From a virus (Duplodnaviria; Caudoviricetes): 57,838 bases of DNA. Below the pieces are notes generated by a model. The model was not told the origin of the DNA. It worked only from the letters and a program-made list of their open reading frames with translations, and did not search any database. A program made the position numbers and the translations under genes. The stretch lies in IMG/VR virus record IMGVR_UViG_3300047181_000043, positions 1 through 57,838 of that record; one strand, written 5' to 3'. This document shows positions 2,052 through 57,385 of the stretch, piece by piece. How positions within the stretch are numbered: position 1 is the first letter of the stretch; every line of letters begins with the position of its first letter.

Positions 2052-2768
2052 ATGTCAGCTTCCATTACATTTACTCCTCAGAAGATTAGGATAGGCAATT
2101 ACCTAAATATTTCGGTTTCAGGAACCACATTAGACACGTCAAATCCGGGAAAGGTGGTTGTATTGGTTAATGGGTTGTACGCCAGGATAGTATCGATTGA
2201 TACAAATAAGTTAATCGTAGTGGTGCCTAAAAAGTCTAGTAATGGAACGGTAAAGGTAATTCTCAAGAATATAACCTATTCAGGGGTTACTTATACAACT
2301 ATAGAATCGACTGATATACTAACCATTGCATATGATGATGTTCAATTTGACAGAACGGCTGTCGCCTCTGGGTTATTCAATCGAGGGCCTAGTAAGGATC
2401 CTATATATAATAAAGATATTACCATTGAAAATTTTTCAATGGTAACTGATGCAAGTTCTCTTATACAGAATGTATATAACATTCTATTAACCGCTCCGAG
2501 TGAACGGTTATTTAACGCGGAATTTGGAAATCCGTTACTTAATGATGTTTTTGCGCTTAACAATCTACCTGGTGAAAATGACACGGTAACATTAAACAAA
2601 CTAAAGAAACTAATAGAGATTCAAGAACCGAGGGTTATTGTGGATGCATCAAAATCTTATGCGTTCTACGATCCAAATTCAAATTCAATGAAGGTTCTTT
2701 TGATTATATTGTTACCAGCGGGAAAAAGTGAGCAGGTGGCTGTTTCACTCAAGGCGCTCGGAAATTAA
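2052..2768 (+). CDS. gp25: Baseplate wedge subunit, gp25-like, with N-terminal IPT/TIG Ig-like domain
   Basis: NILLTAPSERLFNAEFG...IEIQEPRV gp25 signature; beta-rich N-terminus. Confidence 0.8.
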   Translation: MSASITFTPQKIRIGNYLNISVSGTTLDTSNPGKVVVLVNGLYARIVSIDTNKLIVVVPKKSSNGTVKVILKNITYSGVTYTTIESTDILTIAYDDVQFDRTAVASGLFNRGPSKDPIYNKDITIENFSMVTDASSLIQNVYNILLTAPSERLFNAEFGNPLLNDVFALNNLPGENDTVTLNKLKKLIEIQEPRVIVDASKSYAFYDPNSNSMKVLLIILLPAGKSEQVAVSLKALGN

Positions 2769-3700
2769 TGCTTAAACGAAATACTACAGATGGTGAAATC
2801 CGATATTATCAGGATAGTTTGGATAATATTGATGAAATACTACGTGACTTAGGTTGTGTAACTAAGGATGGTAATATTACCAAGTCTTTAAAGTTGCGGA
2901 AGGTTGTGGGTAAATATCAAATCCCAAATTCTAGTTATTATAGTCCGTGTATAGACGTTACATATGAAAATAAGACTGCTAAGATTATTCGGGGTAGTTC
3001 TGATGTATTTCAGTTTACCGGGAATCTTTATGATTTAATTCCACCGATGAAGTGGTTTGGTCGCCTGGTAGATAGTGTAACGATAGATGGACATGAATTT
3101 AGTCCGGATTTTGTAGTTGATGGTGATGTAATAAGAAATGGTCAGGGAATACGAATTGCTGCGGGTACATTTAGAGAATCGGCTGAAACCTCGTCTATGG
3201 CTGCTAATTTTTATATGGGGTGTAATGATTCCCGAGGTGGTGCTGCTCTGCCGCTGTTAAGGGGATATCGGGATTTTATATATAGATTAGGATTTGGTAC
3301 AGAACCTATAGTTGGATTTGCCGATCTTAATGAATATGTATCGAGAATGTCATTGGATAAGGCGTTTAAAGTATCTGGAGCATTGCCTACATGTGATTAT
3401 TTATTGAACTTCTCGGAGATGGGAAGTAAGATGTATTCGAGATTAACTGAGGTGAAATCGAATAAGCAATTCAAATCAGAATTTATTTTTTCAGGAAAAT
3501 GCACCCCATCTGGTTCAAGTGGAATGAACGTTCCATATGTGATTTTTTATCCAGGCCCGATTCAGATTGCTGGCACAAAATTGTTGCAACGGGCATATCA
3601 GATTCAGGAATATAATATAAATATGGCTATCGGATTGTTCAGTACTACTCCACCATTTGTTAAGAATGGGTTAAATTTGTTAGGTAACAAAAAAAGTTAA
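2768..3700 (+). CDS. Hypothetical protein, coupled to gp25
   Basis: 310-aa ORF, TAATG overlap; no motif recognised. Confidence 0.7.
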   Translation: MLKRNTTDGEIRYYQDSLDNIDEILRDLGCVTKDGNITKSLKLRKVVGKYQIPNSSYYSPCIDVTYENKTAKIIRGSSDVFQFTGNLYDLIPPMKWFGRLVDSVTIDGHEFSPDFVVDGDVIRNGQGIRIAAGTFRESAETSSMAANFYMGCNDSRGGAALPLLRGYRDFIYRLGFGTEPIVGFADLNEYVSRMSLDKAFKVSGALPTCDYLLNFSEMGSKMYSRLTEVKSNKQFKSEFIFSGKCTPSGSSGMNVPYVIFYPGPIQIAGTKLLQRAYQIQEYNINMAIGLFSTTPPFVKNGLNLLGNKKS

Positions 3701-3780
3701 TAAATTGCTGTTTTCGGATCAACAAAAACCAATATTGTTAATAGTTAACAATATTGCGCCCAGTGGGCGAAGGATCAGAT

Positions 3781-5043
3781 ATGGCAAAGAAAAACCAATC
3801 CGCGGAAAGTTCCGCACCATCATATTTTTCATCCCTCAAGAAGATCAAGACCGGAAACGAGCTTGCTGATTCCGGTAAGAAGTTAGTCATCGCCGACTAC
3901 ACTGATACTGGATCTCTTATTCTGAACGTAGGCCTTACGGGAGATCTGACGAAGGGAATTCCTTCCGGAAAGGTTATCATGCTTGCCGGTGAAAAGCAGA
4001 CCGGTAAAACCTTTATTGCCGCTTACTGCTACTGCAGACCGCTACAAAATAAGGGTTACTTTATTTTCTGGATCGATACCGAAAATGCGATGGATGACGA
4101 TCGCTTGGCCGGTTATGGTTTGAATCCTGATGGATTTAGAATTATCAAGGAAAACATCGCCGAACAAGTTCGCTTCCAGGTAAATACAATTCTCGATGAA
4201 ATTGAAGAATTGAAGAAGAAGGATCCAAATCTTAAGGCAGCGATTGTGCTTGATTCCCAGGGACAGATGTCTACCATGAAGGCCGTTTCCGATACTGAAA
4301 AGGGTGAGAAGAAGCAAGATTATACCAAGCAGAAGGAACTCAAGACGTTTTATAATCTGACTACCCATCGCCTGGGTGTATTGGATGTTCCTATGTTGGT
4401 GACTAACCACGTTTATGCAGATGTGAATAATCCATTTGCTGGTAATACTAAGGTTATCAGTGGCGGTGAAGGTGGAATGTTTTCCGCTGAAATTATTTTC
4501 TACTGTCGTAAATTTGCACATAAGGATGGAAAATCTGGTCCGAAGACAGGCATCATTTTTGAAATGACTCTTTTCAAGAATCGTTTCTGTGAAGAAGGCA
4601 AGAAGATCCGTATGTACCTGGATAGAAATACTGGCCCAAATCGTTATTACGGAATTCATCTACTCGCCGAAGAAGCCGGCATTATCGAAGAATGGGATGA
4701 AAAGAAGCATGAAAAGAAGGGACTGAAACTTCCTGAAAAGATTGATAAGAAAGACCGCAAGGCATATGTTATCAAGATCGGAACTGAAGTTGTTAATTGG
4801 AAGGTGGTCTGGGATAAATTTGTATATACTCCAGAAATTACCGATGCTATATCTGAAGATTTACAGCGCTGGTTGGATAAGGCGTTCAAATTGATCAATC
4901 CAATCAACTTTCTCAAGGAAAATCCTGATTATGTTGACGGAATCGATCTTTCCGAAAAGGAAGTTGAGGATGCTGCAGCATATACAGACGAGCTCGAGGT
5001 TGAAGCGGGAAAGAAAGTGGATTCTAAGAAATCTAAGCGATAA
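3781..5043 (+). CDS. uvsX: RecA-like recombinase UvsX
   Basis: TDTGSLILN, Walker A GEKQTGKT, IDTENA, IVLDS, TNHVY, SGG; ATG at 3781. Confidence 0.92.
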   Translation: MAKKNQSAESSAPSYFSSLKKIKTGNELADSGKKLVIADYTDTGSLILNVGLTGDLTKGIPSGKVIMLAGEKQTGKTFIAAYCYCRPLQNKGYFIFWIDTENAMDDDRLAGYGLNPDGFRIIKENIAEQVRFQVNTILDEIEELKKKDPNLKAAIVLDSQGQMSTMKAVSDTEKGEKKQDYTKQKELKTFYNLTTHRLGVLDVPMLVTNHVYADVNNPFAGNTKVISGGEGGMFSAEIIFYCRKFAHKDGKSGPKTGIIFEMTLFKNRFCEEGKKIRMYLDRNTGPNRYYGIHLLAEEAGIIEEWDEKKHEKKGLKLPEKIDKKDRKAYVIKIGTEVVNWKVVWDKFVYTPEITDAISEDLQRWLDKAFKLINPINFLKENPDYVDGIDLSEKEVEDAAAYTDELEVEAGKKVDSKKSKR

Positions 5044-5047
5044 CTAT

Positions 5048-5071
5048 AAGGGGGCCTAACGGCCCCTTTTT
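5048..5071 (+). terminator. Intrinsic terminator
   Basis: GGGGCC-TAAC-GGCCCC-TTTTT. Confidence 0.85.
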
Positions 5072-5104
5072 ATTTGTTATCTTTGTTATTCATAACATTT
5101 TTAA

Positions 5105-5113
5105 TTATCTTTG
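5105..5113 (+). promoter_or_regulatory. Putative early/middle promoter element TTATCTTTG (other copies: 5077, 17150, 22480, 27392, 30772, 35390-, 39618-, 40441; variant 12764)
   Basis: Exact 9-mer upstream of replication/recombination genes on both strands; fits TAnnTTTG. Confidence 0.8.
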
Positions 5114-5119
5114 TTTTAG

Positions 5120-6871: not shown

Positions 6872-6882
6872 AATATTGAAAT

Positions 6883-7862: not shown

Positions 7863-7891
7863 TTGACAGTTGAGAAAATAATTACTACTTT
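7863..7891 (+). promoter_or_regulatory. Sigma70-type promoter in the IS607 left end
   Basis: TTGACA-17 nt-TACTTT. Confidence 0.6.
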
Positions 7892-7948
7892 CTACTTCAA
7901 ATTAACTGAATCTAATAACCTGTTTGTATAAACTAAAAGGAGAAGAGG

Positions 7949-8131
7949 ATGAAACGCATGAAAGTAGTACGAGTGACAAAGGAAGAGTTCGAGCTTGAGG
8001 ATGGCACCGTCCAGCCCATGATCGTGGATCTGGGCTATGTCCCAACCGTTGAAGAGTTCCAGCAGATGCTGGATGAGTCCTGCAAATTCGCAGGTATCGA
8101 GGTTGAGGAAGACAAAGATGCCAGTAAATGA
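7949..8131 (+). CDS. 60-aa acidic accessory protein of the IS607 element
   Basis: AGGAG/GAGG SD; overlaps the tnpA start. Confidence 0.7.
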   Translation: MKRMKVVRVTKEEFELEDGTVQPMIVDLGYVPTVEEFQQMLDESCKFAGIEVEEDKDASK

Positions 8132-8777
8132 AAATGACAGGATGATACGCATTCGAGAAGCATGCGAGATGCTTGGTGTTCACCAGAACACGTTGCGTAT
8201 GTGGACGGAACAGGGGAAGATCCAAGCATACCGTGGTGAGAACTCTGATCGTGGTCAGAGACGTTACCGTATTGGTGACATCAAAGCACTGCTTGGTATG
8301 AAGCAGTTGGATGCACCAGTTGAAGCACTTCCTGTAGCCATCTACTGTCGTGTGAGTTCACATGACCAGAAAAAACATGGTGACTTAGAGCGACAGAAAG
8401 GAAGGATGCTGGAATTCGCAGTACATAAGAAGTACCACGTCGAGTACATACTGGATGAAGTTGGTTCTGGACTTAATGATAAGCGAAAGAAGCTACATAA
8501 GTTGATGGAACTGGCAGAACAACATAAGATATCCAAAATCATAGTGGAACATAAGGATCGGCTGACTCGTTTCAACTACGAGATCCTTGTCCGTTTCTTC
8601 AACAGCCACGGAGTTTCCGTTGAATATGTGGAAGAAACGCTTGGTGGTACGTTTGAAGCGGAACTGGTGAAGGATCTACTTTCCCTCATCACCGTGTTTT
8701 CAGCGAAGCTGCATGGCAAGCGGAGCAAGGAAAACCGTGAGCGCACTAAGAAGATGAAGGAAGACGGATTGCTATGA
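8118..8777 (+). CDS. tnpA: IS607 transposase TnpA (MerR-like HTH + serine recombinase)
   Basis: IREACEMLGVHQNTLRMW HTH; YCRVSS, EVGSGLN, EHKDRLTRF, ELVKDL...FSAKLHG. Confidence 0.95.
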   Translation: MPVNENDRMIRIREACEMLGVHQNTLRMWTEQGKIQAYRGENSDRGQRRYRIGDIKALLGMKQLDAPVEALPVAIYCRVSSHDQKKHGDLERQKGRMLEFAVHKKYHVEYILDEVGSGLNDKRKKLHKLMELAEQHKISKIIVEHKDRLTRFNYEILVRFFNSHGVSVEYVEETLGGTFEAELVKDLLSLITVFSAKLHGKRSKENRERTKKMKEDGLL

Positions 8778-10582
8778 AGCACTTGGACAACTACAGGGAA
8801 ATGGATTCCACCTACTCGGTGGCATTCTTTCCCCACATGTTGTCCAGAAGCAAGAAGCGTGAGATCCTTCGCATGGCGAAGAAGATCCTTGCACTCAGGA
8901 ACGAAATATCAGAAATCGTACAGGGTGACCTGTTAAAGTTCCTGAACATGAGCAAGTTCGAGTTCTTCAACTACTTCAATCCGATCCTATCAGGAAGGAT
9001 CTCCAGTCATTTCATCAAGAAGATCATGGAAGATGTACATGAAGCATACCAGAGAAGATCCGAAGCGATAGATAAGCATATCCAGTTCCAGATAGTAACC
9101 TCATTGACTCCTGTATTCTACAAGCGTAGAACCAAGGACAAACAGGTTGGTGACCTGAAATCAATCACCAGAAAAACCAAGAAGACTGACATATCGATCA
9201 CATTAACCTACCTTGCTCGTTATGGTCATACGGGAACATTGCAGTTCCTTCGTGGCGCAATAGAGAATACAGAGGTCAAGGAAGACAAGACGTGGTTTTA
9301 TCTTAAATTGTTGGACATGTGTGATCGTTATGGATTTGGTAGGTTGATGACACTCGCTATGTCAAAACGTGAGCAAGTATATTCTCGTTACGAGGATCGT
9401 GGTGCTATCTGCTTCAGTTCCCTATCGTTCAAGGGAAGATCAAGAATAACACGTCCTATCGTAGCTCGTTCCTCCAAGAAGAATTCTAGGATCAGTCACT
9501 TCGTTGAGTTGTCATGGGAGTGGTCAGAGACGAAAGGTAAACGGAAGAAATCTGACACGATGTGCATTCCTGTTAAGTATAATGCTAAGTATCACAGGAA
9601 CCTAAAAAGATACAGCAACGGAACAGATACCAGCTATACGGTAGTTGTCCGTGGTAAAGATATTCATGTTGTGCTTACCCGTGATGGTAAAAGGTATGTA
9701 CCACTAGCAGAAATAGAGCAGGAGAAAGTTGTTGGTGCTGATGTGAATCAGAAGCATAACATGCTTTCCTGTAGTGATGGATTCACTGTAGATCATAACA
9801 GAGAATTGATTGATGATCTACAGAAAGAACTACTGAAGATAGATAAGAATCGGGAAGTCCACGACAAGCATCAGAAGCTCATCATCGAAGCCAAGAAGCA
9901 GGAAGCTAGGGATTCCGGTGACAAGTATATCAAGTCCAAGAAAGTTGCATACAAACCTACTCGTAAGGAACTTCGGATAATAGATGCATTGTCACGCAAG
10001 AATACCCACTACCAAGAACAGAAGATTGCAGAAATACTGAATCATATGGTGGCTTGTGGATTCAACCACATCGTCCTTGAGGACTTGGATGGATTCATTG
10101 GTGCGAAAACATATGGTGACACCGAAGGTGGTGTGAATACAGGTCGTCTTGGTAAAGCTCTACAACTTTCATCAATCAAGGATATCATTCTCCACATGGC
10201 AACCAGATACGGTGTTTCCGTGTCTCTAGTGCATAAGGAATATTCATCGAAGCAATGTCCGTTATGTGACTGCATCGATGACCTGAACAGGACATCACAG
10301 GAGAAATTTGTTTGTGTGAGATGTGGTTACAGTGATAACGCTGACCACAACTCATCAGTTAATTTGAAAATCCGGCTTACCTCGACCGTGTTAAGAGGGA
10401 AGTTGCTCACGCAACAGACTACCGGATACAGTGCGTTCTTGCCAAAGAACCTTCCTAGATGGAAGGTGAAGGATGCTCTGGAAAAATATCGTCATGGAAT
10501 GGATCTCGATCCATTCGGAAACTTCGTGGAGCCTAAAGTGGTCAGAAATGACCACTATGAAGTTCTGTTAGGTTTGCAGTGA
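8774..10582 (+). CDS. tnpB: TnpB RNA-guided nuclease, long form (602 aa), RuvC triad intact
   Basis: VVGADVN, IVLEDL, CPLC...CVRC zinc finger, NADHNSSVNL. Confidence 0.92.
   Translation: MKHLDNYREMDSTYSVAFFPHMLSRSKKREILRMAKKILALRNEISEIVQGDLLKFLNMSKFEFFNYFNPILSGRISSHFIKKIMEDVHEAYQRRSEAIDKHIQFQIVTSLTPVFYKRRTKDKQVGDLKSITRKTKKTDISITLTYLARYGHTGTLQFLRGAIENTEVKEDKTWFYLKLLDMCDRYGFGRLMTLAMSKREQVYSRYEDRGAICFSSLSFKGRSRITRPIVARSSKKNSRISHFVELSWEWSETKGKRKKSDTMCIPVKYNAKYHRNLKRYSNGTDTSYTVVVRGKDIHVVLTRDGKRYVPLAEIEQEKVVGADVNQKHNMLSCSDGFTVDHNRELIDDLQKELLKIDKNREVHDKHQKLIIEAKKQEARDSGDKYIKSKKVAYKPTRKELRIIDALSRKNTHYQEQKIAEILNHMVACGFNHIVLEDLDGFIGAKTYGDTEGGVNTGRLGKALQLSSIKDIILHMATRYGVSVSLVHKEYSSKQCPLCDCIDDLNRTSQEKFVCVRCGYSDNADHNSSVNLKIRLTSTVLRGKLLTQQTTGYSAFLPKNLPRWKVKDALEKYRHGMDLDPFGNFVEPKVVRNDHYEVLLGLQ
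10434..10579 (+). ncRNA. TnpB omegaRNA scaffold overlapping the tnpB 3' end (5' boundary uncertain)
   Basis: Hairpins 10449-10467, 10497-10516, 10537-10556 (GAAA loop); stem 10520-27/10557-64; pseudoknot-like pairing 10531-36/10568-73. Confidence 0.8.
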
Positions 10583-12796: not shown

Positions 12797-15700
12797 ATGA
12801 CACAACGAAATTCAAATTACCTCCCACTGAAGCTCACCAAAAACGCTATCAAGGTACTCGAAGCGCGATACCTGAAAAAGGTCGAAGGAAAGATCGTAGA
12901 AACCCCAGAAGATTTGTTCTACCGAGTGGCTGACGCCATGGCCAACGTCGATGAAAGATATGGCGCGAGTGCCGAAGAAATCGAAGCACTTCGCGTTAAA
13001 TTCTACAATATGATGGTAGAAGGAAAGTTCATGCCAAATAGCCCCGCACTGATGAACGCGGGAAAGAACAATGGCAACAGCTTCTCTGCATGTATTCACG
13101 GAGATTCACCGGTGTTGACTAACAGTGGTTATGTGCCTATGCGAGAAATATATGACCGGGTGAATTCAGGCGAGACTGTTATTGTATCTAATGGATTTAA
13201 TGAATGGGTCCCTGTATTAGCTGCCATAAATCAAGGTATTAAACCAGTATATAGGATCAATACACGAGCAGGTCGTTATGTAGATTGTACTTTAGATCAT
13301 AAATTCTATACATTCGAGCCAGGAAATAGAGATAATGGTGCATATGAAACCGGAAGCTTTAAATGGGCTCCCATTGGAGAAATTCCTTGTGGTAGGAGGT
13401 TGGCATATGGGATGCAGTCACCAATCGTGGAAGATAATAATGAAATTGATTCGGAGATAGCGTTAGCCGCCTGGATATTAACTGATGGAGGTTGCGGATG
13501 GTACAAGCAATCTAAGGGAACTACAGGGGAGTTTTTTGTTGGTGAAATTCAAGTTATAGATGATCGATCCCTAGATAACGTTATTAATCATATTAACAAG
13601 TTGGGATTTTCATATACACAAAAAGATATTTCAGGTGTGGGTGGAGTAGAACGATTTACTAGAATCAGATCATATGATAGAAAATTAGCTAAGTTTTGTG
13701 AAAAATTTGAGTTATTTAATAGAACTAACACAAAAATAGTGTCTTCCTTAATAAGAAATTCTTCGTATTCAAATAAGAGAGAATTTTTGCGAATCGTATT
13801 TGAAGCAGATGGATGTATAACAGGAACTGGAATAGGATTTCAATCTGTTTCTCAAGTATTAGTTGAAAACATTTCTGAGATGTTAGATTTATTTGGGATT
13901 GCTCATACCATAAATTTCAAAAAAGAACGCCGGGTAGGGAGATTGGATGGTTGGTCAATCCAAATTAATCACACCCGAAGTATCTTATTGTTTAAGGAAA
14001 GAATTGGGTTTATATCTGATCGTAAGCAATTGAAATTATCACAATGGCCGGAAAAGAATCCATATCCAGAAAATATAAAATATGTAGGTAATGAATATTT
14101 AGGTGAAGATGAAGTATTTGATATTCAAACCGCTATAGATGGGAATGGGAGTTTTGTTGTTGATGGTATTATTGTACATAACTGTTTTGTCCTACCTCTC
14201 AATGATTCTATTCGTGATATATTTACAACTGCTTTGAATACCGCCCTTGTACAGAAGGCTGGAGGTGGTACGGGATTTAGCTTCGACAAGCTTCGGCCGA
14301 CAGGCGATTTTATCAATAGCTCCGGTGGAACTACATCAGGTCCTATTTCCTTTTGGAAGGTACTCGCAGAAACTACCAATTCAATTCAGCAAGGATGTTT
14401 TGTAGGATCTACCCTTATTGGAATGCCTGGTCAGAACAAGCAGATCAGAGACATTAAAAAAGGTGATGTTGTCTATTCATATGATACTAATATAGGACAT
14501 GTAGTGTATAAGAAAGCTGCGTGTGATGCGTTCAAGACTAAAGAAAACGCACCCGTTTTTAAACTCTCAACGAATCGAGGACTTGATGTTTTCGTTACAG
14601 AAAATCATCAATTCTTACTTCGTAGTAATGATTACATAGAATTAAAGGATTTAGATTCTCGTTTGCCTATAATGTCCCTACTTCGCCGATTGGACGTTTC
14701 TCAAGTCGATGCCACATACCCAGCACAAACAACTGATGGAATTGATTATTCATTTGTGTCAAATAACTATTTAGATTCTGTATATGACACCGTAGTTGCG
14801 TCAATTGAATTTTCACATCATGAAGATGTGTGGGATTTTGAAGTTGAAGACACTCATAATTTTAGCGTGGTAGGAAATGATGGTGAGGGTATATTTGTAC
14901 ATAATTCCATGCGTCGCGGTGCAAACATGGGTATGATGACCATTACCCATCCTGATATTCTCAAGTTCATCACAGCCAAGCAAGATCTAAGTAAGTTCAC
15001 TAATTACAATATTTCGATCAAGATTCCCGATGCCTGGATGGTCGAGTATAAGAAATGTCCAGATGCTCCACACGTCGCTATTAATTTCCGTACTGGAGAT
15101 CGTTATGTTATTCCAAAGACAGTTCCGATCGAAACATATGAAATCAATGAGTTGATCAGATATGAAGATTATGTAGAGGGTTCTGTTAAAATTTGGACCA
15201 TGCGCGAAATCTTTGGAATCATTATTGATTGTGCTTGGAAAACTGGCGAACCCGGTCTTTTCTTTATTGATAAAGTCAATGAAAAAAATGCAACTCCTCA
15301 CGTTGGTGAAATCGAGGCAAGTAACCCCTGCGGCGAATTACCCTTACTCCCATATGAAGCTTGCAACTTAGGATCGCTAAATATTGCTGCATTTGTTACT
15401 GAAAATGGTCTTGACTGGGAATCCCTCGGACAATATATCAGAACCGCAACATATTTCCTGGATACCGTTATTGACGCGAGTCCTTTCCCAATTCCAGAGA
15501 TCAAGAAGATGTGCGATGAGAATCGCAAGATCGGTTTGGGTTTGATGGGATTTGCTGATGCGATGTTCCTGTTAGGAATCTCCTATAATTCAGATGAAGG
15601 AATTGAGTTCGGTCGCAAATTGATGAAGTTCATTAATGATACTGCACTGGATGAATCTGAATCGATTGCCAAGAAGAAGGGAGTATTCCCTAATTATGTA

Positions 15701-17071
15701 GGATCTCGTTGGGAGACCGAATGGAACCGAACCTTACGTAATGCCGGAGTGACAACAGTTGCCCCAACAGGAACCATTTCAATTATTGCGGATTGTTCTG
15801 GTGGCATCGAGCCAATGTTCTCGCTGGCATTTGAACGTAACGTGTTAAATGGCCAGAAGTTAATCGAAGTGAATAAGATATTTGAGAAGGTTGCTAAGGA
15901 CCGAGGATTTTATTCTCCGGAACTTATGGAACGTTTGGCTAAGGAAGGAACGCTTCAACATATTGATGAAGTTCCTGATGATATCAAGAAAATCTATGTA
16001 TGTTCTCATGATATCGCTCCAGAATGGCATATCCGCATGCAGGCAGCCTTCCAGGAATCCTGTAGTTCTTCCATATCCAAAACAATCAATATGCCCCACA
16101 CGGCCTCCAGAGAGGATGTGGAACAGACTTACTTGATGGCCTGGGAGATGAATTGCAAGGGCATCACGGTATACCGTGACGGTTGTCGCGATATGCAGCC
16201 CATGTCGCTTAAGAAGGAATCTGCCAAGATGGAGATTCCCGAAGCCAAGGAAGAGGCTAAGCATATCGAGGAACAGCAGATCGAATTGCAAAATATTTTC
16301 GTAGGCGTTCCTGAAGGCCAAATCATTTCTGATGTTTCGTTCCCAGATCGTTCCCACTCGGAGACCTATGTTATCCGCGCCGGCAAGAAGGGTTCAAAGA
16401 CGCACAAGAAGATATATACAACCCTAGCATTCGCGGATAAGGATTTGACTCGTCCATTTGCGATGTTTGTTAATTCCAATTCGTTCACCTCGAATGAAGT
16501 CACTGATGAGATTGTGAAGATTCTGAAGGCGCTTGCTAAGGAAAAGCTTTCTGAGGATGCGATCCATGCTTTGCGCGAATCCATGAAGGGCCAGAGTAAG
16601 ATTTCCCAGTTGATCCACATAACATCGGCTGTCGCCACTGTGGGAGTGACTGCGCAAGATATCATAGCAGTTCTTCCACATGAGAACAAGACTGACGAGG
16701 ATCCTGTGGTGACGGCGGACATTATTTCAATTCTTACCAAGCTTGCTGCGGAAAAGGGAATTCGCAAGGAATTGGTAGAGGATCTTGAAAAGAAGTATCG
16801 CAATCAGGTTAACGTGGTCAAGATTGCTCGTTTGATAGGCATGTTGCTTCGTCATAACGTTCGAATCTCGGATGTGGTTGAATCATTCGACCAGGTGCAA
16901 TTCCCAGTTACCTCATTCGTTTTCCAGATCAAGAAGTTGTTATCCAAGTTCATTAAGGATGGCACTGAAGTGACTGGCAAAACAGGATGTCCTGAATGTG
17001 GTGGTAAGATGGTCTACCAAGAAGGGTGTTTGAAATGTGCATCCGGCTGTGGTTGGTCAAAGTGCAAATAA
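12797..17071 (+). CDS. nrdJ: Class II (adenosylcobalamin-dependent) ribonucleotide reductase with two inteins
   Basis: FMPNSPALMNAG, GGGTGFSF, RRGANMG, GEPGLFFID, SNPCGELPL, TTVAPTGTIS, KGITVYRDG, C-terminal CPECG...CLKC. Confidence 0.95.
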   Translation: MTQRNSNYLPLKLTKNAIKVLEARYLKKVEGKIVETPEDLFYRVADAMANVDERYGASAEEIEALRVKFYNMMVEGKFMPNSPALMNAGKNNGNSFSACIHGDSPVLTNSGYVPMREIYDRVNSGETVIVSNGFNEWVPVLAAINQGIKPVYRINTRAGRYVDCTLDHKFYTFEPGNRDNGAYETGSFKWAPIGEIPCGRRLAYGMQSPIVEDNNEIDSEIALAAWILTDGGCGWYKQSKGTTGEFFVGEIQVIDDRSLDNVINHINKLGFSYTQKDISGVGGVERFTRIRSYDRKLAKFCEKFELFNRTNTKIVSSLIRNSSYSNKREFLRIVFEADGCITGTGIGFQSVSQVLVENISEMLDLFGIAHTINFKKERRVGRLDGWSIQINHTRSILLFKERIGFISDRKQLKLSQWPEKNPYPENIKYVGNEYLGEDEVFDIQTAIDGNGSFVVDGIIVHNCFVLPLNDSIRDIFTTALNTALVQKAGGGTGFSFDKLRPTGDFINSSGGTTSGPISFWKVLAETTNSIQQGCFVGSTLIGMPGQNKQIRDIKKGDVVYSYDTNIGHVVYKKAACDAFKTKENAPVFKLSTNRGLDVFVTENHQFLLRSNDYIELKDLDSRLPIMSLLRRLDVSQVDATYPAQTTDGIDYSFVSNNYLDSVYDTVVASIEFSHHEDVWDFEVEDTHNFSVVGNDGEGIFVHNSMRRGANMGMMTITHPDILKFITAKQDLSKFTNYNISIKIPDAWMVEYKKCPDAPHVAINFRTGDRYVIPKTVPIETYEINELIRYEDYVEGSVKIWTMREIFGIIIDCAWKTGEPGLFFIDKVNEKNATPHVGEIEASNPCGELPLLPYEACNLGSLNIAAFVTENGLDWESLGQYIRTATYFLDTVIDASPFPIPEIKKMCDENRKIGLGLMGFADAMFLLGISYNSDEGIEFGRKLMKFINDTALDESESIAKKKGVFPNYVGSRWETEWNRTLRNAGVTTVAPTGTISIIADCSGGIEPMFSLAFERNVLNGQKLIEVNKIFEKVAKDRGFYSPELMERLAKEGTLQHIDEVPDDIKKIYVCSHDIAPEWHIRMQAAFQESCSSSISKTINMPHTASREDVEQTYLMAWEMNCKGITVYRDGCRDMQPMSLKKESAKMEIPEAKEEAKHIEEQQIELQNIFVGVPEGQIISDVSFPDRSHSETYVIRAGKKGSKTHKKIYTTLAFADKDLTRPFAMFVNSNSFTSNEVTDEIVKILKALAKEKLSEDAIHALRESMKGQSKISQLIHITSAVATVGVTAQDIIAVLPHENKTDEDPVVTADIISILTKLAAEKGIRKELVEDLEKKYRNQVNVVKIARLIGMLLRHNVRISDVVESFDQVQFPVTSFVFQIKKLLSKFIKDGTEVTGKTGCPECGGKMVYQEGCLKCASGCGWSKCK
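13091..14182 (+). mobile_element. Intein 1 in NrdJ, 364 aa, with LAGLIDADG homing endonuclease
   Basis: SA|CIHGDS...TLDHKF...IIVHN|CFV; AAWILTDGG and LRIVFEADG motifs. Confidence 0.93.
14396..14905 (+). mobile_element. Intein 2 in NrdJ, 170-aa mini-intein
   Basis: QQG|CFVGST...TENHQF...VWDFEVEDTHNF...FVHN|SMRRGA; no endonuclease motifs. Confidence 0.93.
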
Positions 17072-20798: not shown

Positions 20799-20808
20799 GA
20801 GTTCACAT

Positions 20809-22002
20809 ATGCCAATGGATAAAAGTAAAAAGAGGCTTATCGAGAGTTTGGGTGCCGGTCCTATTGACCGAAATAAACTTCTCAACGTGGTTAGCCAGAC
20901 ATTGGCTGCGTATGAAGCACCGACTCCAGGTAATATAGACGGAACTGATTTTGAAGGTGATGGTAAGATTCCTAGTGAAATCTCACCTACTAGCGATTAT
21001 TTATTTGCGCCGGCGCTAAAGAAGATCGAAACTCCGACCGTTGAATCGGATGAAGTTGTCGAAGAAGCCTTTCCTGGAGATGTAATAACACCGCCTCCAG
21101 CCAAGGAGAAGAAGAAAAAGTTTTATCCTAAGTGTGAAGATGCGAACATTCGTCGCGCAGCAAAGATGCAAAAGAAGCAAGAAGCTGGAGTTGCTCCGGC
21201 CGCGTATAGAGAATCTTTGTGGAATACACGAACATATGACTATCTTAGCATGGATCTTCCCGCGGTTCATTTTGTTCTTAACCGGGTGGAATCGAGTTAT
21301 TATTATGAAGCGCCTCGTATCGCCCCTACTAAGCTAATTGGAATTCCAGCGTTCGGCAATCCTTGCACGAAGAACGCGTTCGAGCATTTTATGTGGATTC
21401 AGAATAAGATTCGTGAATATCGAGGCAAGGATCCTAAGAATGCACCTGACTGGATTCTTATCAGTCAATCCACATCAATGCTCTCCGATCTTGGTTTGAT
21501 AAAGAGATTGTCTGCCCTGCAGCCTGAAACATGTCTGGCTGGCGCCTTTGGTTTTAACCAAGTTAGAGCTGATGGTAAGTGGTGGAATATTGGTAGTGGT
21601 GATGTTACGCGTGGAAATTATGTTCAGGCCAATATTGAAACTCTTGAATGGGATTACGTACGCGGTAAGGATTTTCATGAATCCGACCGATATCGTACTT
21701 TGATTATTCATGGTCCTTTTATTGCGGTTCGTGGCTCTTTCTTTATGCAATTGGATTTTACTGCTTGTGCTCGTGGATATCAGGGTGGTGGTTATTGGCA
21801 TATGATGGCCGAACTGTCAATGATGTGTGCTGGTCTTGGAAAGAAGGCGGCTACTCTTAAGACACATTCCATGCAATATGACTCAATGAAACCACATATC
21901 GATACGGATACATTCAAGAATGATCATAAGTTCTTTGTTGAAAAGTGGATTGATTATCTCCCTGTTCTGCAGCCGGATACGCTGACAAAGCGGAAATTAT
22001 AA
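20809..22002 (+). CDS. Protein with disordered N-terminus and degenerate GT-A glycosyltransferase-like C-terminal domain
   Basis: Pattern WILISQS...LAGAFG...IHGPFIAVRG...AELSM...FFVEKW resembles GT2-like domains; no DxD. Confidence 0.4.
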   Translation: MPMDKSKKRLIESLGAGPIDRNKLLNVVSQTLAAYEAPTPGNIDGTDFEGDGKIPSEISPTSDYLFAPALKKIETPTVESDEVVEEAFPGDVITPPPAKEKKKKFYPKCEDANIRRAAKMQKKQEAGVAPAAYRESLWNTRTYDYLSMDLPAVHFVLNRVESSYYYEAPRIAPTKLIGIPAFGNPCTKNAFEHFMWIQNKIREYRGKDPKNAPDWILISQSTSMLSDLGLIKRLSALQPETCLAGAFGFNQVRADGKWWNIGSGDVTRGNYVQANIETLEWDYVRGKDFHESDRYRTLIIHGPFIAVRGSFFMQLDFTACARGYQGGGYWHMMAELSMMCAGLGKKAATLKTHSMQYDSMKPHIDTDTFKNDHKFFVEKWIDYLPVLQPDTLTKRKL

Positions 22003-26751: not shown

Positions 26752-26820
26752 AAATATACCTTATGAATATGCGTTAGTTTATCTTGGGTGATAAACTAGC
26801 GAGTAGTTAAAGGCGGTTTT

Positions 26821-32319: not shown

Positions 32320-33180
32320 ATGAGCGAAAATTCTTTACTTTTAGCGGTCTCCGGAGGGTCCGATTCCATGTGCATGCTGCATATGTATCGAAACCTACCA
32401 GGCATCCAGGTTGCTCATGTAAATTATAATTTTAGAGATGATTCCATAGAGGATCAGGAACTGGTATTCCACTTTTGTAATAAATACAAAATTCCAGTTC
32501 ATGTAAAAACGATCTCTAAATCCGATATTCCAGCTACAGGATTCGAAGCCTGGGCTCGAGATATTAGATATGACTTTTTTAACAAAATCATGAAATCCGA
32601 AGGAATCTCGAAGCTGGCGACAGCCCATAATAAGAATGATCAAGCAGAAACCGTAATTATGCGGATCATGCGCGGGACCGGATTGAAGGGTCTGCGCGGA
32701 ATTCATAGGGAATCTGATTCGATAATTCGTCCTATTCTGGATATGAATAAGACAGAGGTATACACATACTGTAAAGAACATTCAGTGCCGTATCGGGAAG
32801 ATTCTACTAATTCAGATACAATATATCTTAGAAATAAGATTAGACATACGATGATCCCTCATGTAGATATCGATGCACTGTCTAGAATTGCTGATATTTC
32901 ACAAAAAATATATCCGAAAGTATTAAAATTGTCGCTAGATCGGCTGGCGCCATATGTTAAAGTTTCTGCTAATTTAATTGAAATTGATAGACATGCTACC
33001 CTGGATGAACTGGCATTTTATGGTTTGTCTAAATATTTTGAGAATTGGTTTTCATTATCATCTGAAATCTACCAACAAATCAAATCTGATATGGGTTGTG
33101 ATCGTAGATTTTATATAAATGCAAAAGTAATATGTGACAAGCGTAGCCCTAAACGGATTCGAATTTTCTTTGAACAATAA
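32320..33180 (+). CDS. tilS: tRNA(Ile)-lysidine synthase
   Basis: AVSGGSDS PP-loop, HVNYNFR, EAWARDIRY, TAHNKNDQAET, GTGLKGL, IRPIL, EDSTN, RNKIR. Confidence 0.93.
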   Translation: MSENSLLLAVSGGSDSMCMLHMYRNLPGIQVAHVNYNFRDDSIEDQELVFHFCNKYKIPVHVKTISKSDIPATGFEAWARDIRYDFFNKIMKSEGISKLATAHNKNDQAETVIMRIMRGTGLKGLRGIHRESDSIIRPILDMNKTEVYTYCKEHSVPYREDSTNSDTIYLRNKIRHTMIPHVDIDALSRIADISQKIYPKVLKLSLDRLAPYVKVSANLIEIDRHATLDELAFYGLSKYFENWFSLSSEIYQQIKSDMGCDRRFYINAKVICDKRSPKRIRIFFEQ

Positions 33181-41560: not shown

Positions 41561-42931
41561 ATGAATGAATTGAAAAACAGATTTGATTCCGAACTAGGGA
41601 TCACTACTCTGAACGTGTTATATGTTGGGGATGGCGACAGCCATCTGTATCCGGTGCGCGGCGAAGCCATCATTCGACAGATCGCCCAGTTTTACGAACG
41701 CACTACGCCAATTGATTATATCACCACCAGCTCAAAGAGCTTCGCTAAGAAGACATTGGCAGACCTGGGCGATATCAACACTATCTTTATTGATAATGTT
41801 AAGGATTATCGCTCGCTCAAGGCGCTTATTTCCATTGTAAATTCATTGAATGATATTGTTCATCCGGGTTGGCAGGACGAAGCTAAGGCTTTGCCTGAAA
41901 CCGAAGTTGAAGCATTCATGAAGGAACTTGCGAAGGCTCGTTCCACTAAGTTCCGTATTATCTATGCGATCGATGAATTTGTTTGGGATGCTCCTGCTGG
42001 TCGTATGTGCGATTTGCAGACTGTGCAAATTGTTGAAAGCTTTATTGAAATTGCCGATTCCGTCCTGGTGCCAACTGCGGATCTCGCGGATGCGGTAAAG
42101 TATTTCAAGTTTGTTGATGAAGAAAAGGAAATTCATGTAATTCCTTCCATGCTTACCAAGGAAATCGCTCAAGTATATCGTGATTTCACTCGTAAGTGGA
42201 ATTTGAGTTCTACTTCCGCACAGCGCACTCCTCGGGTTCTTATCAAGGGATTGGAGCTTCCTGCCAATGTTCAGGAATTCATTCAGAACCATTTTAAGAA
42301 ATTTGATATTACTATTTGTTCTGTTGGTGAAATTGATGACCACACTGCAGGCCTGATCAATGCTCGTAAGGTCGGTCATATTATGCATTGGGCAAACCCA
42401 AGCGTGAACAAGGCTAACATAGGAACTACATATGCTATGGAACGTGATGTCGGCTATGATTTCGTTATTCTCTGCAAGCCAGATGCGATGGAAGGCAAGA
42501 TGTATGAAATCTGTTCCGGTGATGATGATATTATCTTCTCCGCTTCTTATGGTGCGGTAGTGGTGTGTGGTTGGGACCATCTGGAATTGGGCGCGGATCA
42601 TATTTCCAAGAAGAGCGGAATGCATTTTGGTAAGGATACCGATGCGGTTCAGATCAAGAATATGCTCGAGAGCATGGTGAATTTCTATGATAAGTGGAAT
42701 GCCGCTTATAATGAAGTTCGTCGTTATCTCGAATCCCGAATTTTGGATACAAGCAGCTTTGCCCAATCCGCTTATTACAATCTCATTGCCGGTCCAGAAT
42801 GGACAGCATATGTAGAAAGTAAGACCAACACGGCTCCAGAATCTGTACAGGAAACTGCTGCAGCAGAGCCAATTGCGGATGAAGATATGCCTGAGAATGC
42901 AATCCGTCTACCATTTGGAAAGGAAGGTTAA
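41561..42931 (+). CDS. GT-B-fold glycosyltransferase-like protein (divergent)
   Basis: IIYAIDEFVWD...ADSVLVPTADLAD...IHVIPSML matches a common GT4-like pattern. Confidence 0.5.
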   Translation: MNELKNRFDSELGITTLNVLYVGDGDSHLYPVRGEAIIRQIAQFYERTTPIDYITTSSKSFAKKTLADLGDINTIFIDNVKDYRSLKALISIVNSLNDIVHPGWQDEAKALPETEVEAFMKELAKARSTKFRIIYAIDEFVWDAPAGRMCDLQTVQIVESFIEIADSVLVPTADLADAVKYFKFVDEEKEIHVIPSMLTKEIAQVYRDFTRKWNLSSTSAQRTPRVLIKGLELPANVQEFIQNHFKKFDITICSVGEIDDHTAGLINARKVGHIMHWANPSVNKANIGTTYAMERDVGYDFVILCKPDAMEGKMYEICSGDDDIIFSASYGAVVVCGWDHLELGADHISKKSGMHFGKDTDAVQIKNMLESMVNFYDKWNAAYNEVRRYLESRILDTSSFAQSAYYNLIAGPEWTAYVESKTNTAPESVQETAAAEPIADEDMPENAIRLPFGKEG

Positions 42932-42932
42932 T

Positions 42933-43655
42933 ATGGGAATCTTTGCAAAGCGCAATGATCTTAAGGTAGTTGGTCTGTTTGGTCAATCCGGTTCCGGAAA
43001 GACCACCGCGATCAAGGCTGCCGCCGGTTTGTCAAATGGTTGGAATCTTCTTCCATATACCGGAACAATTCGACATCTTTTCATTAAGAATGCGTCGTAT
43101 GTTGAACCTCATAAGCTTATCGAGAAGGCACCTGAAATTCTGGCACAGAACAGCCCTGAAAAAATTGATGCGATCTATGAAGACTACGCTCGTTCGCAGC
43201 GCCAGCTTCTTTGTGATTTTGATTCTGAAGTTTTCAAGGAATGCTTCCAGGGCAAAACCGTAGGTCGTACAGTTCTTTTGGTAGATCGTTCCCCATTTGA
43301 TTTCTATGTATTGACCCTGTGTGGTTTGGATGATCTCAAGGCTACATATAAAAAGGATTTTGGTCCTGCTGTGCTTGATATTGTAAAATCTATCAAGACC
43401 ATCGCTGAACGGGATTCTGAAAACTTCTTTGATGCGATTATCGTATCACATGCCTGGACAGATGATCATTCGCGCACTGTTGATGGTGTGCGTGATTATT
43501 ATTTGTCCGAATTTTATACCGGAACACCTTGGTATTCTCGATTGGATGATGTGGAATTTCGAAAGACAAAGAAATACAATCTTAATAAGGAACTTAACTC
43601 GATCGATTCTCGGGTAGTTGATATTAAGAAGATTGTAGCTGATTTGTTGAAATAA
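42933..43655 (+). CDS. P-loop nucleotide-kinase-like protein
   Basis: GQSGSGKTT; LLVDRSPFD; ATG at 42933 after AGGAAGG. Confidence 0.7.
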   Translation: MGIFAKRNDLKVVGLFGQSGSGKTTAIKAAAGLSNGWNLLPYTGTIRHLFIKNASYVEPHKLIEKAPEILAQNSPEKIDAIYEDYARSQRQLLCDFDSEVFKECFQGKTVGRTVLLVDRSPFDFYVLTLCGLDDLKATYKKDFGPAVLDIVKSIKTIAERDSENFFDAIIVSHAWTDDHSRTVDGVRDYYLSEFYTGTPWYSRLDDVEFRKTKKYNLNKELNSIDSRVVDIKKIVADLLK

Positions 43656-48198: not shown

Positions 48199-48206
48199 AG
48201 GATTAT

Positions 48207-48620: not shown

Positions 48621-48621
48621 A

Positions 48622-52999: not shown

Positions 53000-53008
53000 A
53001 CAGGTAAC

Positions 53009-53509: not shown

Positions 53510-53529
53510 AATTCAAATATCTTATTTGA

Positions 53530-53946
53530 ATGAGTTGTTGCGGCGGAGAGCCATATACCGGTGAAATCTATATACCACTTCCACAGAGATTGGTAGAATA
53601 CGGCCAAACCACGGTCGGATTGGAAGTTATGAATAGATTTCCGAGTACCCGGCTTTGGATATTTTCTTTTATCCAGGACGTGGAAGGATGTTCGTCTTGT
53701 GTAGACGCGTTTACACAAATGATATCATGGTTTCGCAAACGTGATTTTTTGGATAATCCATCGAATAATGTGAAATTCATATATGAAGATAATATTTTAG
53801 GAAATCCTATAGCTAGAGATATAGGTATAGTAAAATCACCAACTCATATCTTTTGCGGTCCTGACGGAACTATACATGATATTGTTCTAGGTACTCCAAA
53901 TGATGAATGGTTGGATCAATATATTTTGCCAAAGTTGGTATCATGA
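53530..53946 (+). CDS. Thioredoxin-fold protein
   Basis: CSSC motif; IARDIGIVKSPTHIF..PDG. Confidence 0.7.
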   Translation: MSCCGGEPYTGEIYIPLPQRLVEYGQTTVGLEVMNRFPSTRLWIFSFIQDVEGCSSCVDAFTQMISWFRKRDFLDNPSNNVKFIYEDNILGNPIARDIGIVKSPTHIFCGPDGTIHDIVLGTPNDEWLDQYILPKLVS

Positions 53947-54998: not shown

Positions 54999-55855
54999 TC
55001 TCGGTAATTATAATATTACATAACCAATCAAAAAATTTAGATCCGATTTTATTAGGATTGTCTAGACAATCTATATCTGATTTTTCAGTAATTGTAATTG
55101 AAGACCGTCCTACCGAATCAGATCATGCTGAACATTTGTTAGCAATATCAAGTTCTAATATTTCAGACAAAATATTATTACACACATTATCCAATCATCC
55201 ATTAGTTTCTCGTAAAAATCCTGATGGGTCTACATTCCTTGCTCCATATGCTAGAGAAGTTGGGTTGGATATGGCGATTGCGTCGGGAAGCGAGTATTTT
55301 ATATTTATAGATGGTGATTGCATTCCATTGTCAGGTATGATAAGTGGTCACTTGGATTCACTTAAATATAATATTCCAGTTCTTACGTGTGGACGAAGAA
55401 GGGAAAAAAAGTATAGATGGCAGGATATGCGCGAATGCGAACCAGGAATAATGAATTATGGTATTTTTCGCGGAAAAGGAATGCTCGTAAATAATCCAGA
55501 TTTATTGATTAAATCATTATTGGTTTGGTCATGTAATATTGGATTGAATCTGGCTGCGGTGCGCCGTATCCGCGAATTAAATAGGATGTTTACCGGACAC
55601 TCGGATTTATTCTGTCGCCATTTCTGGGGAGCCTGGGGCGGCGAAGACGGCTTTCTAGGAATTCAGGCATGGACAACGCGCACGTATATTAAAATGCTGG
55701 GTGATCCGATGTCTGGAGTTGATCATATAGATCATCCGCGCCCCGCAGAAATATATAATCCAGACCACTCTAAATTTTTATCAGATATTTCTGATAAATT
55801 AAGAAAGTATTTAGTTATAAATCCATTGGATTTGGCATTCTTCACGAATTTTTAG
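54995..55855 (+). CDS. Family 2 glycosyltransferase
   Basis: ISVIIILHNQ, VIVIED, FIFIDGDCIP, SCNIG, WGGED. Confidence 0.88.
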   Translation: MISVIIILHNQSKNLDPILLGLSRQSISDFSVIVIEDRPTESDHAEHLLAISSSNISDKILLHTLSNHPLVSRKNPDGSTFLAPYAREVGLDMAIASGSEYFIFIDGDCIPLSGMISGHLDSLKYNIPVLTCGRRREKKYRWQDMRECEPGIMNYGIFRGKGMLVNNPDLLIKSLLVWSCNIGLNLAAVRRIRELNRMFTGHSDLFCRHFWGAWGGEDGFLGIQAWTTRTYIKMLGDPMSGVDHIDHPRPAEIYNPDHSKFLSDISDKLRKYLVINPLDLAFFTNF

Positions 55856-56732
55856 ATCTGGCTTTTGCCGATGCGGGACTGTCTTCAAATCGATTTATCT
55901 TCAACGCCTTTACTGATCCACTGCCTGACAACATTTCTTTATCACTCATGTTATCACTAATTCCCCGGAAAGTTCCAAATTCTTTAAATGGTTGCTGGAA
56001 TAAATCGGGGCATTCAAATGATACATTATACATCATTTTTTTGGCATCGCTAGATACGAATCTAGGAGATCCTGGATCCTTCAGTACAATAGAATTAAAT
56101 TCGAACACCTGAGTAGGTACCATATCATATGTACCTGAACCCATATTATGGCCTTGAAAGGTGGCCACATAAGCACATAACTTCTGAAATGAAGATGTTG
56201 GCTTCAGTAGCTGCGGAGAAAAGAAGCAGTTAATAAGAGCATTAAAAAATTGATACCATATAAGATCTTTATTTTCGATTACGGTCAGATTTAATAATCC
56301 TGGGCCGGCATGACTTCTAACTAATGGAAATTGTATAGACTTCTCCGTATCAACCGTGTATCCAGTTTCTGTTATAGTCTTTACCGTGGGAACGTCAACA
56401 TGATCAACTACCCATTTCATTTCTACCGAAAATCCCCTGCCTTTATTGTCTTTATTTACATGTCCCGCGATCCAACGATTTAGCATTTCCTTATATATAG
56501 GACGCCCGTTATACTCTTTTGGGATGTTAGTTACCATATCACGAGCAGCATATTTAATTAGCGAATCAACCGCTTTTTGTACATATTCACCATAAAAACC
56601 AACTAGGTATTTATTTCCTACATAGATTGAACCATTAGAATAAAATCCGGAGTTCCATTCTTCTGCAGTCTTGTCTTTTTCAATGGATTTAGTTCCACTG
56701 CTTGCAGCAATTGCTTGTGTAATTTGGCTCAT
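55842..56732 (-). CDS. Tail-tube-fold baseplate protein (gp54-like)
   Basis: VDHVDVPT, LNLTVIE, QVFEFNSI, YNVSFE; late operon with 56735-57385. Confidence 0.5.
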   Translation of the reverse strand: MSQITQAIAASSGTKSIEKDKTAEEWNSGFYSNGSIYVGNKYLVGFYGEYVQKAVDSLIKYAARDMVTNIPKEYNGRPIYKEMLNRWIAGHVNKDNKGRGFSVEMKWVVDHVDVPTVKTITETGYTVDTEKSIQFPLVRSHAGPGLLNLTVIENKDLIWYQFFNALINCFFSPQLLKPTSSFQKLCAYVATFQGHNMGSGTYDMVPTQVFEFNSIVLKDPGSPRFVSSDAKKMMYNVSFECPDLFQQPFKEFGTFRGISDNMSDKEMLSGSGSVKALKINRFEDSPASAKARSKNS

Positions 56733-56734
56733 AT

Positions 56735-57385
56735 TTACGTTTTTCCTGCAGTTGTATCAACGATGCTTGCTGGTGGTGTTGGATAATGTTGTGGTGAATC
56801 TGATCTAAATACATTGCGGAAACTAAATATACAGGACAAAGCAAATGTTTTTATAGAAGGATCTATGAAAGATTCTTCTGGTGTAGTCAGTCCCTGAGGA
56901 AAACATCTATAATATCTAGTTGTTTGATATATTTGATACGTATTGTCGCCGTCTATTATATCAATATATGGTATATACATCAGGCGATTTCTATAAAATC
57001 CATCATTTCCATAAACAAAATCTTTCTTATTTTGGATTGGATATCCATTTGTCTTTCCGCTTTGCACTGTTTGCATATATCTATATAATGCCCACCAATT
57101 TTCATTTCGCGAGTCCGCTATCATATTTATTGTGATAGTTTCGTTTAAATATTCATTATCTTCGGTGATGGGTATGTGAACCCTGGCCTTATAATGATAC
57201 TCTTTTTCATAATTCAATTGAATGTCGGGTGGTCTATACGACGTAATTAACGCGTTTATGGTTTCGCTTGGCGGCGAGTCGGACTGTGAAAATGATACTG
57301 GTAGGGGACCAATTACAATTTTTCCGGTGGCATTATGCCTACGGGTAAGTGAGTGGTCAAGTATAGGTGAAATTGTATCAATCAC
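56735..57385 (-). CDS. Tail-tube-fold protein (gp3/gp19-like tail completion)
   Basis: SYRPPDIQL, ITINMIADSRNENWWALYRYM, RYYRCFPQGLT; ATAAACT 5 nt upstream. Confidence 0.6.
   Translation of the reverse strand: MIDTISPILDHSLTRRHNATGKIVIGPLPVSFSQSDSPPSETINALITSYRPPDIQLNYEKEYHYKARVHIPITEDNEYLNETITINMIADSRNENWWALYRYMQTVQSGKTNGYPIQNKKDFVYGNDGFYRNRLMYIPYIDIIDGDNTYQIYQTTRYYRCFPQGLTTPEESFIDPSIKTFALSCIFSFRNVFRSDSPQHYPTPPASIVDTTAGKT

Follow-up and report, generated by a model that had tools for sequence, protein, structure and literature searches.

Integrons are regarded as bacterial gene-capture devices. Groups of attC sites that lack an integrase, termed CALINs, are defined by at least two attC sites lying close together with no intI nearby (PMC4889954). 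As far as the available portions of Qi et al. (2023, PMC9892861) go, such integrase-less cassette clusters were reported in virulent phages only in 2023 and from few genomes; 17 CALINs are given for phages, 5 of 6 tested virulent-phage sites were recombined by IntI1, and methyltransferase cassettes are present. Here we compare with these clusters the cassette arrays at the two ends of a stretch of phage DNA, IMG/VR virus record IMGVR_UViG_3300047181_000043, which was analysed as the entire linear record of 57,838 bases (the window; CheckV completeness 14%). A sequence-only reading of the window had noticed that neither of its two attI-like docking platforms has an integrase beside it, and had proposed that the phage borrows the integron integrase, IntI, of its host or encodes one elsewhere, and that it could sample the host's cassette pool. 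The absence of an integrase is a correct negative, and it is also what defines an established class of element, the phage CALIN. We propose that the window carries integron-type cassette arrays on which a tyrosine recombinase of the IntI type acts in trans, its likeliest source being an integron of the infected cell; to this explanation we give an even chance.

With the phage CALINs described in the available portions of Qi et al., the window and its relatives share attC cassettes that run in one direction, the lack of an integrase and a DNA-methyltransferase cargo, and the published sites are usable by bacterial IntI. It differs in that its arrays start at a conserved, multi-copy platform of 172 nucleotides (nt), a feature that does not occur in the published descriptions compared, in that the phage is large and T4-like, and in that its site family is common to unrelated uncultured phages. 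A covariance model built from six phage sites (R1) gave no match to Polaribacter phage P12002L, a published Bacteroidota-phage CALIN. What is new beyond the published cases is the conserved multi-copy platform, together with a short attC class that was found in phages and short metagenome contigs and in none of the cellular genomes searched.

Docking platforms and cassette arrays

The features that carry the argument are listed here by position in the window; ORF stands for open reading frame, aa for amino acids, and bit scores are those of R1.

1875-2046, minus strand: left docking platform, attI-like, ending in GTTAGGC at 1881-1875; inverted repeat, core shared with phages G001 and G006/G010
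2039-2045, plus strand: ATAAACT, candidate late promoter element, inside the left platform, facing inward
2052-2768, plus strand: inner gene on the left, gp25-like baseplate wedge with a TIG-like N-terminus; weak (Pfam E 6.6e-5, below the curated cut-off; PHROG baseplate wedge E 3.3e-5)
1441-1842, minus strand: first left cassette ORF, about 133 aa, start after GGAG, stop codon in the R'' box
1415-1446, minus strand: minimal attC-type site, 32 nt, 46.3 bits; R box, loop and 3-bp L box only
1020-1412, minus strand: second left cassette ORF, 130 aa, ending inside an attC; a relative lies beside an attC in the P22-like phage G004
1005-1066, minus strand: attC-type site, 62 nt, GCCTAAC...GTTAGGC, 76.9 bits, fold z -4.0
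811-984, minus strand: third left cassette, small ORF of 57 aa, after the second attC
57390-57562, plus strand: right docking platform, ending in GTTAGGC at 57556-57562; inverted repeat
57391-57397, minus strand: ATAAACT inside the right platform, facing inward
56735-57385, minus strand: inner gene on the right, GTG start, no Pfam or PHROGs match
57579-57770, plus strand: first right cassette ORF, about 63 aa, after the leader TAATGCGAGG, read by eye; the contig ends 68 nt on

The two platform copies are inverted with respect to each other, and their likeness (blastn, 173 nt at 87.9%; 124 nt at 86% plus 51 nt at 94%) extends over 172 nt from AGTTTAT to exactly GTTAGGC. The core contains TAAC-N6-GTTA and three GGATA/GGATG repeats, and repeated TTATCC/GGATAA motifs are also present. 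The platform ends in GTTAGGC, and its sequence is unlike the bacterial attI regions compared. The attI1 site has L and R boxes and two direct repeats (PMC9892861, in the available portion); the platform resembles it in plan and not in sequence, and is a candidate for the part of attI. The two inverted copies flank 55 kb of core genes, a block that recombination between them would invert.

Several lines of observation indicate that the platform exists in more copies than the two in the window. In X1, one of two sequencing runs on sediment samples, its summed contig depth is 331, against about 23-36 in the flanks (approximately 11-fold), eight variant contigs cover one platform position, and several different sequences continue from each edge; in run X2 the pattern recurs with less depth and five contigs. 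Because of this depth, these variants and these divergent continuations, the platform is multi-copy with differing neighbours, either in one genome or in co-occurring relatives, between which contig depth does not distinguish. The arrays of the phage number two or more, perhaps about eight to judge from the depth.

The platform also occurs in other phages. Record L015 carries the same platform (91% over 157 nt), next to which a protein, judged by eye, starts like a RuvC-type resolvase. The platform's last 33 nt (GGATG..AAA..C..GGGT.ACT.GG.TGTTAG) are found twice in the unrelated phage G006/G010, where the copies likewise have an inverted TTATC...GATAA farther upstream. A search of IMG/VR with a degenerate form of this 33-nt core returned nothing beyond four loci already known, and a platform 19-mer ending in GGC had no match there, the single relative, found by an 18-mer, ending in GGT. 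In G004, G005, G007 and G008, arrays begin instead at a lone GTTAGG with unrelated DNA upstream, as would be expected of chance insertion by IntI at secondary sites (bioRxiv 10.1101/2022.09.11.507474, in the part available to us), whereas the window, G001 and G006/G010 use the conserved platform. In G004 (also L022), the lone GTTAGGT from which the array begins is immediately preceded, at about 20800-20900 on the minus strand, by a stretch that by eye looks like part of a tRNA gene.

From the platform's GTTAGGC outward, the left array consists of ORF 1441-1842, a 32-nt GCCTAAC...GTTAGGC site, ORF 1020-1412, a 62-nt GCCTAAC...GTTAGGC site, and small ORFs. The mechanically called form of the first ORF (1441-2037, 198 aa) extends through the platform, and its start as a cassette was taken at 1842. 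The sites stand at the 3' ends of the cassette ORFs, all in one direction along the array, and the stop codons of these ORFs lie within the GCCTAAC (R'') box. R'' and R' boxes (RYYYAAC/GTTRRRY) are present as GCCTAAC/GTTAGGC in both sites. Folded as single strands, the sites pair in an outer stem of 7 bp and, past an internal loop of 4-5 nt, in a GGT/ACC stem of 3 bp; one arm has two bulged bases, and the tip varies in length. We take these features to be those of integron attC architecture; the site at 1005-1066 has the 7-bp R box, the internal loop, the 3-bp L box and two bulged bases. R1 finds no site between 137 and 1000, so no attC follows ORF 811-984. The left array thus holds two sites 349 nt apart with no intI within 57 kb, and is a CALIN by definition. 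On the right, the leader TAATGCGAGG ahead of the first cassette ORF is also found behind attC sites in L015 and G005 and behind a platform in L028.

The sequence-only reading had placed tail genes, driven by an inward-facing ATAAACT, at both platforms. Both copies do contain ATAAACT, 5-6 nt ahead of the inner gene's start codon, and this element probably drives the adjoining late gene. The left gene is weakly gp25-like; because the right-hand genes (56735-57385 and its neighbour 55842-56732) have no match in Pfam or PHROGs, the tail-gene part of the claim holds for the left side only.

Relatives of the sites in phages, metagenomes and bacteria

The six sites from which R1 was built gave, in a free MAFFT alignment, 20 base pairs, 9 of them with compensatory change, and share conserved ends of 14 nt on each side. 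At E<=0.001 the model finds sites in 9 of 9 phage records (2, 4, 4, 5, 5, 4, 1, 4 and 5 sites), with lengths of 32-93 nt in phages. An attC 15-mer led to 15 loci, of which only L015 holds an array; this record (34 kb, 9% complete) has four sites of 55-93 nt, and its array had only one 35-nt chance match to GenBank phages (blastn). The other loci were set aside: L013 has only a plain 31-nt hairpin, and the remaining 13, which lack the GCCTAAC...GTTAGGC pair, look like chance.

Wider searches used a degenerate pattern of the conserved site ends, divided into a short class of 50-80 nt and a longer one. The short class occurs in 8 viral and 31 metagenome stretches and in none of 185,579 cellular species genomes; the longer class occurs in 14 stretches in metagenome-assembled genomes (MAGs) of high GC content, with lower model scores. 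In 26 short metagenome contigs R1 finds 54 sites. The 78 ORFs scanned on these contigs (from 94 frames of at least 100 aa) include no tyrosine recombinase, but 7 DNA methyltransferases and one restriction enzyme. The idea that the phage samples its host's cassette pool is not supported by these results, because none of the cellular genomes searched has the short class and the cargo appears to serve phages.

The further sites bear out the fold. Among the 53 distinct ones of the 54, 93.9% of alignment cells are paired, versus 30-36% in controls with slid partners. Double changes number 194, versus 59.8 +/- 6.9 in shuffles, none of 500 reaching the observed number. The alignment of the 54 was fitted to R1 and is to that extent biased towards the structure; the slid controls and the free MAFFT alignment agree with it. 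The CCTAAC/GTTAGG columns are conserved in 51-54 of the 54, in a set found in part by a pattern containing these letters, and the bulged G and A are kept in 53 and 51, respectively.

The array-bearing phage records range from 38 to 55% GC and belong to at least three types: the T4-like G000 and G001; the ~30-kb G004, G005 and G006/G010, which share structural genes; and G007 with G008. G004 is a P22-like podovirus, with portal, coat, large terminase and RecT among its 30 ORFs, an exact 127-nt terminal repeat, and 4-5 sites. No protein family common to all array-bearing records was found. Array-linked candidates in G006 and G007 belong to no Pfam family and were rejected; by eye they look like coiled-coil and single-strand-annealing module proteins.

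The same model, built from phage sites alone, also reaches bacteria, where it finds 37 same-strand sites in 14 loci, all in MAGs. An IntI above the TIGR02249 curated cut-off is present in all 5 tested genomes with kin sites and in none of 14 controls, and at 3 of 6 IntI loci a site of 32-51 bits lies within ~1.1 kb of the integrase gene (the best, 50.9 bits, in a Gemmatimonadaceae MAG). Since R1 finds bacterial arrays that adjoin true IntI genes, the phage sites appear, from sequence and fold, to belong to a family served by IntI enzymes in bacteria. Complete integrons, which comprise intI, attI, Pc and attC arrays, were compared in Acidobacteriota and Gemmatimonadaceae MAGs; the phage arrays share with them the attC architecture, the conserved termini CCTAACA..CG.TG ... 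A.CT...CGTTAGG, and a docking site whose last letters are GTTAGGC. The phage differs from these integrons in that it lacks intI, has late phage genes in the place of intI and several platforms as opposed to one attI, and in that its sites are often shorter (55-70 nt) than those of the bacterial kin, which come only from the longer class (about 75-105 nt). The sequence-only view that these are sites of the kind used by IntI is supported by the pairing, the double changes and the kin arrays in IntI-bearing MAGs.

There are also signs that cassettes have moved. A relative of the second left cassette (1020-1412) adjoins an attC in G004, an unrelated phage, and the leaders TAATGCGAGG, GAACAAAAGGAAC and CAACAGA... 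recur behind platforms, attC sites and lone GTTAGG sites in different phages. The last base of R' shares 0.63 bits of mutual information with the downstream leader (3 of 2000 shuffles reach this value), versus 0.17 with its pairing partner. This tie fits a crossover inside GTT, although plain linkage between neighbouring bases could contribute to it.

Recombinases and competing explanations

Three further features enter into the question of which enzyme acts on the arrays.

8037-10582, plus strand: IS607-type pair, TnpA 8037-8777 (Resolvase E 2.1e-21, with HTH_17/MerR) and TnpB 8774-10582 (Cas12f1-like TNB domain E 6.2e-13)
1-105, strand not assigned: end of a second mobile element inside which the contig breaks; 100% identical to L015 7534-7638
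3754-5043: RecA/UvsX-like gene (Pfam)

A six-frame search with PF00589 gave no match in the window, versus matches in 14 of 14 control genomes, and TIGR02249 (integron integrase) gave none at E<=1. Neither next to the platforms nor elsewhere in the 57.8 kb is there an integrase, and the arrays are therefore CALIN-type. The integrase search covered 11 phage records, 9 of which have this attC family and 4 of which (G000, G001, G006, G010) have the platform core. None of the 11 matched PF00589 or TIGR02249, including the terminally repeated G004 and G008 (98% complete), in line with an enzyme acting in trans, and the 30 ORFs of G004 contain no recombinase family. That the only recombinase of the window is an IS607 serine transposase also proved correct: among the 52 main ORFs scanned with Pfam, the sole recombinase is the Resolvase protein with a MerR-type helix-turn-helix, accompanied by TnpB. 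This unit fits what we take to be the definition of the IS607 family, a serine recombinase with an N-terminal MerR-type helix-turn-helix followed by tnpB. It sits amid replication genes, and just upstream an ATAAACT stands 14 nt ahead of a small ORF at 7949.

The stretch 1-105 has a depth of 226 versus 30 in the adjoining DNA of run X1 and is multi-copy there. In L015 its counterpart has a TnpB remnant on one side and, on the other, genes that lead to a resolvase. The stretch resembles the terminus of another mobile element, one that was active recently. Two joints in X1 (105>1005 and 105>1052) consist of 24-28 nt in one contig each, and we gave them no weight.

Both the recombination in the phage and the supplier of its enzyme are matters that we infer. 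In the arrangement that we favor, the 172-nt platform ending in a GTTAGGC R box would head the array and act as attI, small genes ending in folded attC sites would come next, outward from it, and the cassettes would be excised and inserted by an IntI-type enzyme acting in trans. As a source of this enzyme, a gene of the phage in the unseen 86% of its genome is less likely than the integron of the infected cell.

A number of observations weigh against this arrangement. T4-like phages usually shut down host expression early, which would limit the use of an induced host IntI. If CheckV is right, 86% of the genome is unseen, and a phage integrase could lie there. The conserved platform, with about eight variant copies in one sample, looks more like a dedicated system than like chance insertion by a host enzyme, and the short attC class is in none of the 185,579 cellular genomes. 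The best 80 of at least 507 IntI-bearing IMG/VR loci have no high-scoring site, only five weak ones of 31-39 bits (best 38.6), and among them the cognate integrase was not found; the four lowest-GC IntI loci and L142, searched with filters off, gave sites in L147 only, at 15-29 bits. Recombination products are not seen directly, since the contigs of X1 and X2 show differing platform neighbours and not events. Finally, if the host phylum is Bacteroidota (see below), complete integrons are rare there (PMC9024848, in the part available).

Some of these same points would be explained if the phage encoded its own integron integrase or a dedicated recombinase in the unassembled part, with the platforms as its attI sites and the whole as a complete multi-array phage integron. 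Only ~14% of the genome is in hand; the platform is conserved, with its TTATCC/GGATAA and GGATG repeats, and is present in some eight variant contigs at ~11 times the flanking depth in X1; a second phage lineage retains the 33-nt core; and the at least 507 IMG/VR stretches that carry IntI relatives mean that virus-classed records do hold such genes. Nevertheless, we think this explanation unlikely, if far from negligible, since no integrase is found in any of the 11 phage records, among them the 9 with the attC family and the 4 with the platform core, since the terminally repeated G004 has no recombinase family, and since platform-like sequence is absent from the best 80 of the IntI loci. The relatives favor supply of the enzyme in trans, and the conservation and copy number of the platform leave room for an enzyme borne by the phage. 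More broadly, phages might run an integron system of their own, with many platform-headed arrays, a phage-borne or specialised recombinase, and a cassette pool, rich in anti-restriction DNA-modification genes, that passes between unrelated phages of T4-like, P22-like and other types and not between bacteria; we entertain this as a possibility, with considerable doubt.

An enzyme of integron type would be superfluous if the arrays had been acquired once and were now shuffled only by phage homologous recombination between repeated ends, with the hairpins acting mainly as terminators. The window has the RecA/UvsX-like gene, the sites have 14-nt conserved ends on each side, and shuffling of this sort is described, in the available portions of PMC2839356 and PMC4122927, for the promoter-stem-loop (PeSL) modules of T4-type phages, which share with our arrays repeated intergenic hairpins bounding small accessory genes in plastic T4-like regions. 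But PeSL modules join an early promoter to the stem-loop, and the six aligned attC sites contain neither TAnnTTTG nor ATAAACT; the sites here have integron R and L boxes and also occur in non-T4 phages and beside bacterial IntI. Also against it, the R box, bulges, unpaired spacer and covarying stems, which matter to IntI, are kept across phages of 38-55% GC and bacteria, and the likeness of the platforms halts exactly at GTTAGGC; we regard this explanation as improbable. Movement of the cassettes by the IS607-type serine recombinase is very improbable and close to refuted. A resolvase gene does lie 6 kb from the left platform, another just past the array of L015, and the element end at 1-105 abuts the left array; but resolvase genes are present in only 2 of the 9 array-bearing records, and the two align over only 265 nt at ~70% and belong to ordinary TnpA-TnpB units. 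Furthermore, attC and attI are substrates of tyrosine recombinases. Supply of an IntI-type enzyme in trans, with the reservations given above, is the explanation that we prefer.

The phage, its promoters and the significance of the arrays

The window is a piece of a large, distant T4-like phage, whose full genome would be ~400 kb if the CheckV estimate is correct. Its T4-like proteins (Pfam/PHROGs) resemble gp43, gp32, gp41, gp44, gp47, gp25 and the tail sheath, the last with a length of 970 aa, and its replication-type genes encode, besides the RecA/UvsX-like protein, a DnaB-type helicase, a gp32-like protein, a family B DNA polymerase, a clamp-loader ATPase and an Mre11-like phosphoesterase. 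The distance is considerable: the DNA polymerase shares only ~27% identity with gp43 of a cyanophage, and 25 kb of the window gave no megablast match to GenBank phages. An IMG/VR relative at 44% (G003, 224 kb) has no attC-type sites and no integrase. No tRNA genes and no Rfam families were found in the window. Elsewhere in it, an intein that has a LAGLIDADG domain interrupts the ribonucleotide reductase large subunit (12797-17071, 1424 aa). Beside the Mre11-like gene, at 41561-43655, a pair of overlapping ORFs of 456 and 260 aa, each with weak P-loop/ABC signatures, may be a split Rad50/gp46-like gene. At 32320-33180 lies a PP-loop ATPase of the TilS/ATP_bind_3 family (E 1e-55), in which the C-terminal domains found in lysidine synthase are missing; a language-model atlas search with this protein, aimed at the host, gave mixed phyla.

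Two promoter-like motifs divide the genes. ATAAACT, with 16 copies in the window versus 12.6 expected, is not more frequent than chance (23 of 100 shuffles reach 16). Its placement is non-random: 12 of the 16 copies lie in the non-coding 6% of the window, and 10 stand no more than 45 nt ahead of a gene start on the same strand. The genes behind it, a structural set, include the baseplate-wedge-like gene, the tail sheath and one with a peptidase/endolysin-type domain; a divergent pair of copies lies at 26776-26797. The TATCTTTG motif, in turn, precedes replication genes, with 10 of 14 copies within 45 nt of a start codon. At these genes the box (5106, 17151, 19629, 22481, 27393, 40442 and others) often stops just 1-5 nt ahead of the ATG, a spacing that suggests leaderless early transcripts. 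The motif fits what we take to be the Bacteroidota -7 promoter consensus, TAnnTTTG, and this promoter type suggests a host among the Bacteroidota; the habitat labels of the sequencing runs carry no weight as to the host.

To the few phage genomes in which cassette clusters are known, the window adds a large T4-like phage that has two or more arrays, a conserved platform at the array head, and a site family that extends across phages and has methyltransferase cargo. If it is true that phages swap accessory genes by integron chemistry, this would provide a defined route by which anti-restriction genes turn over in the plastic regions of their genomes.

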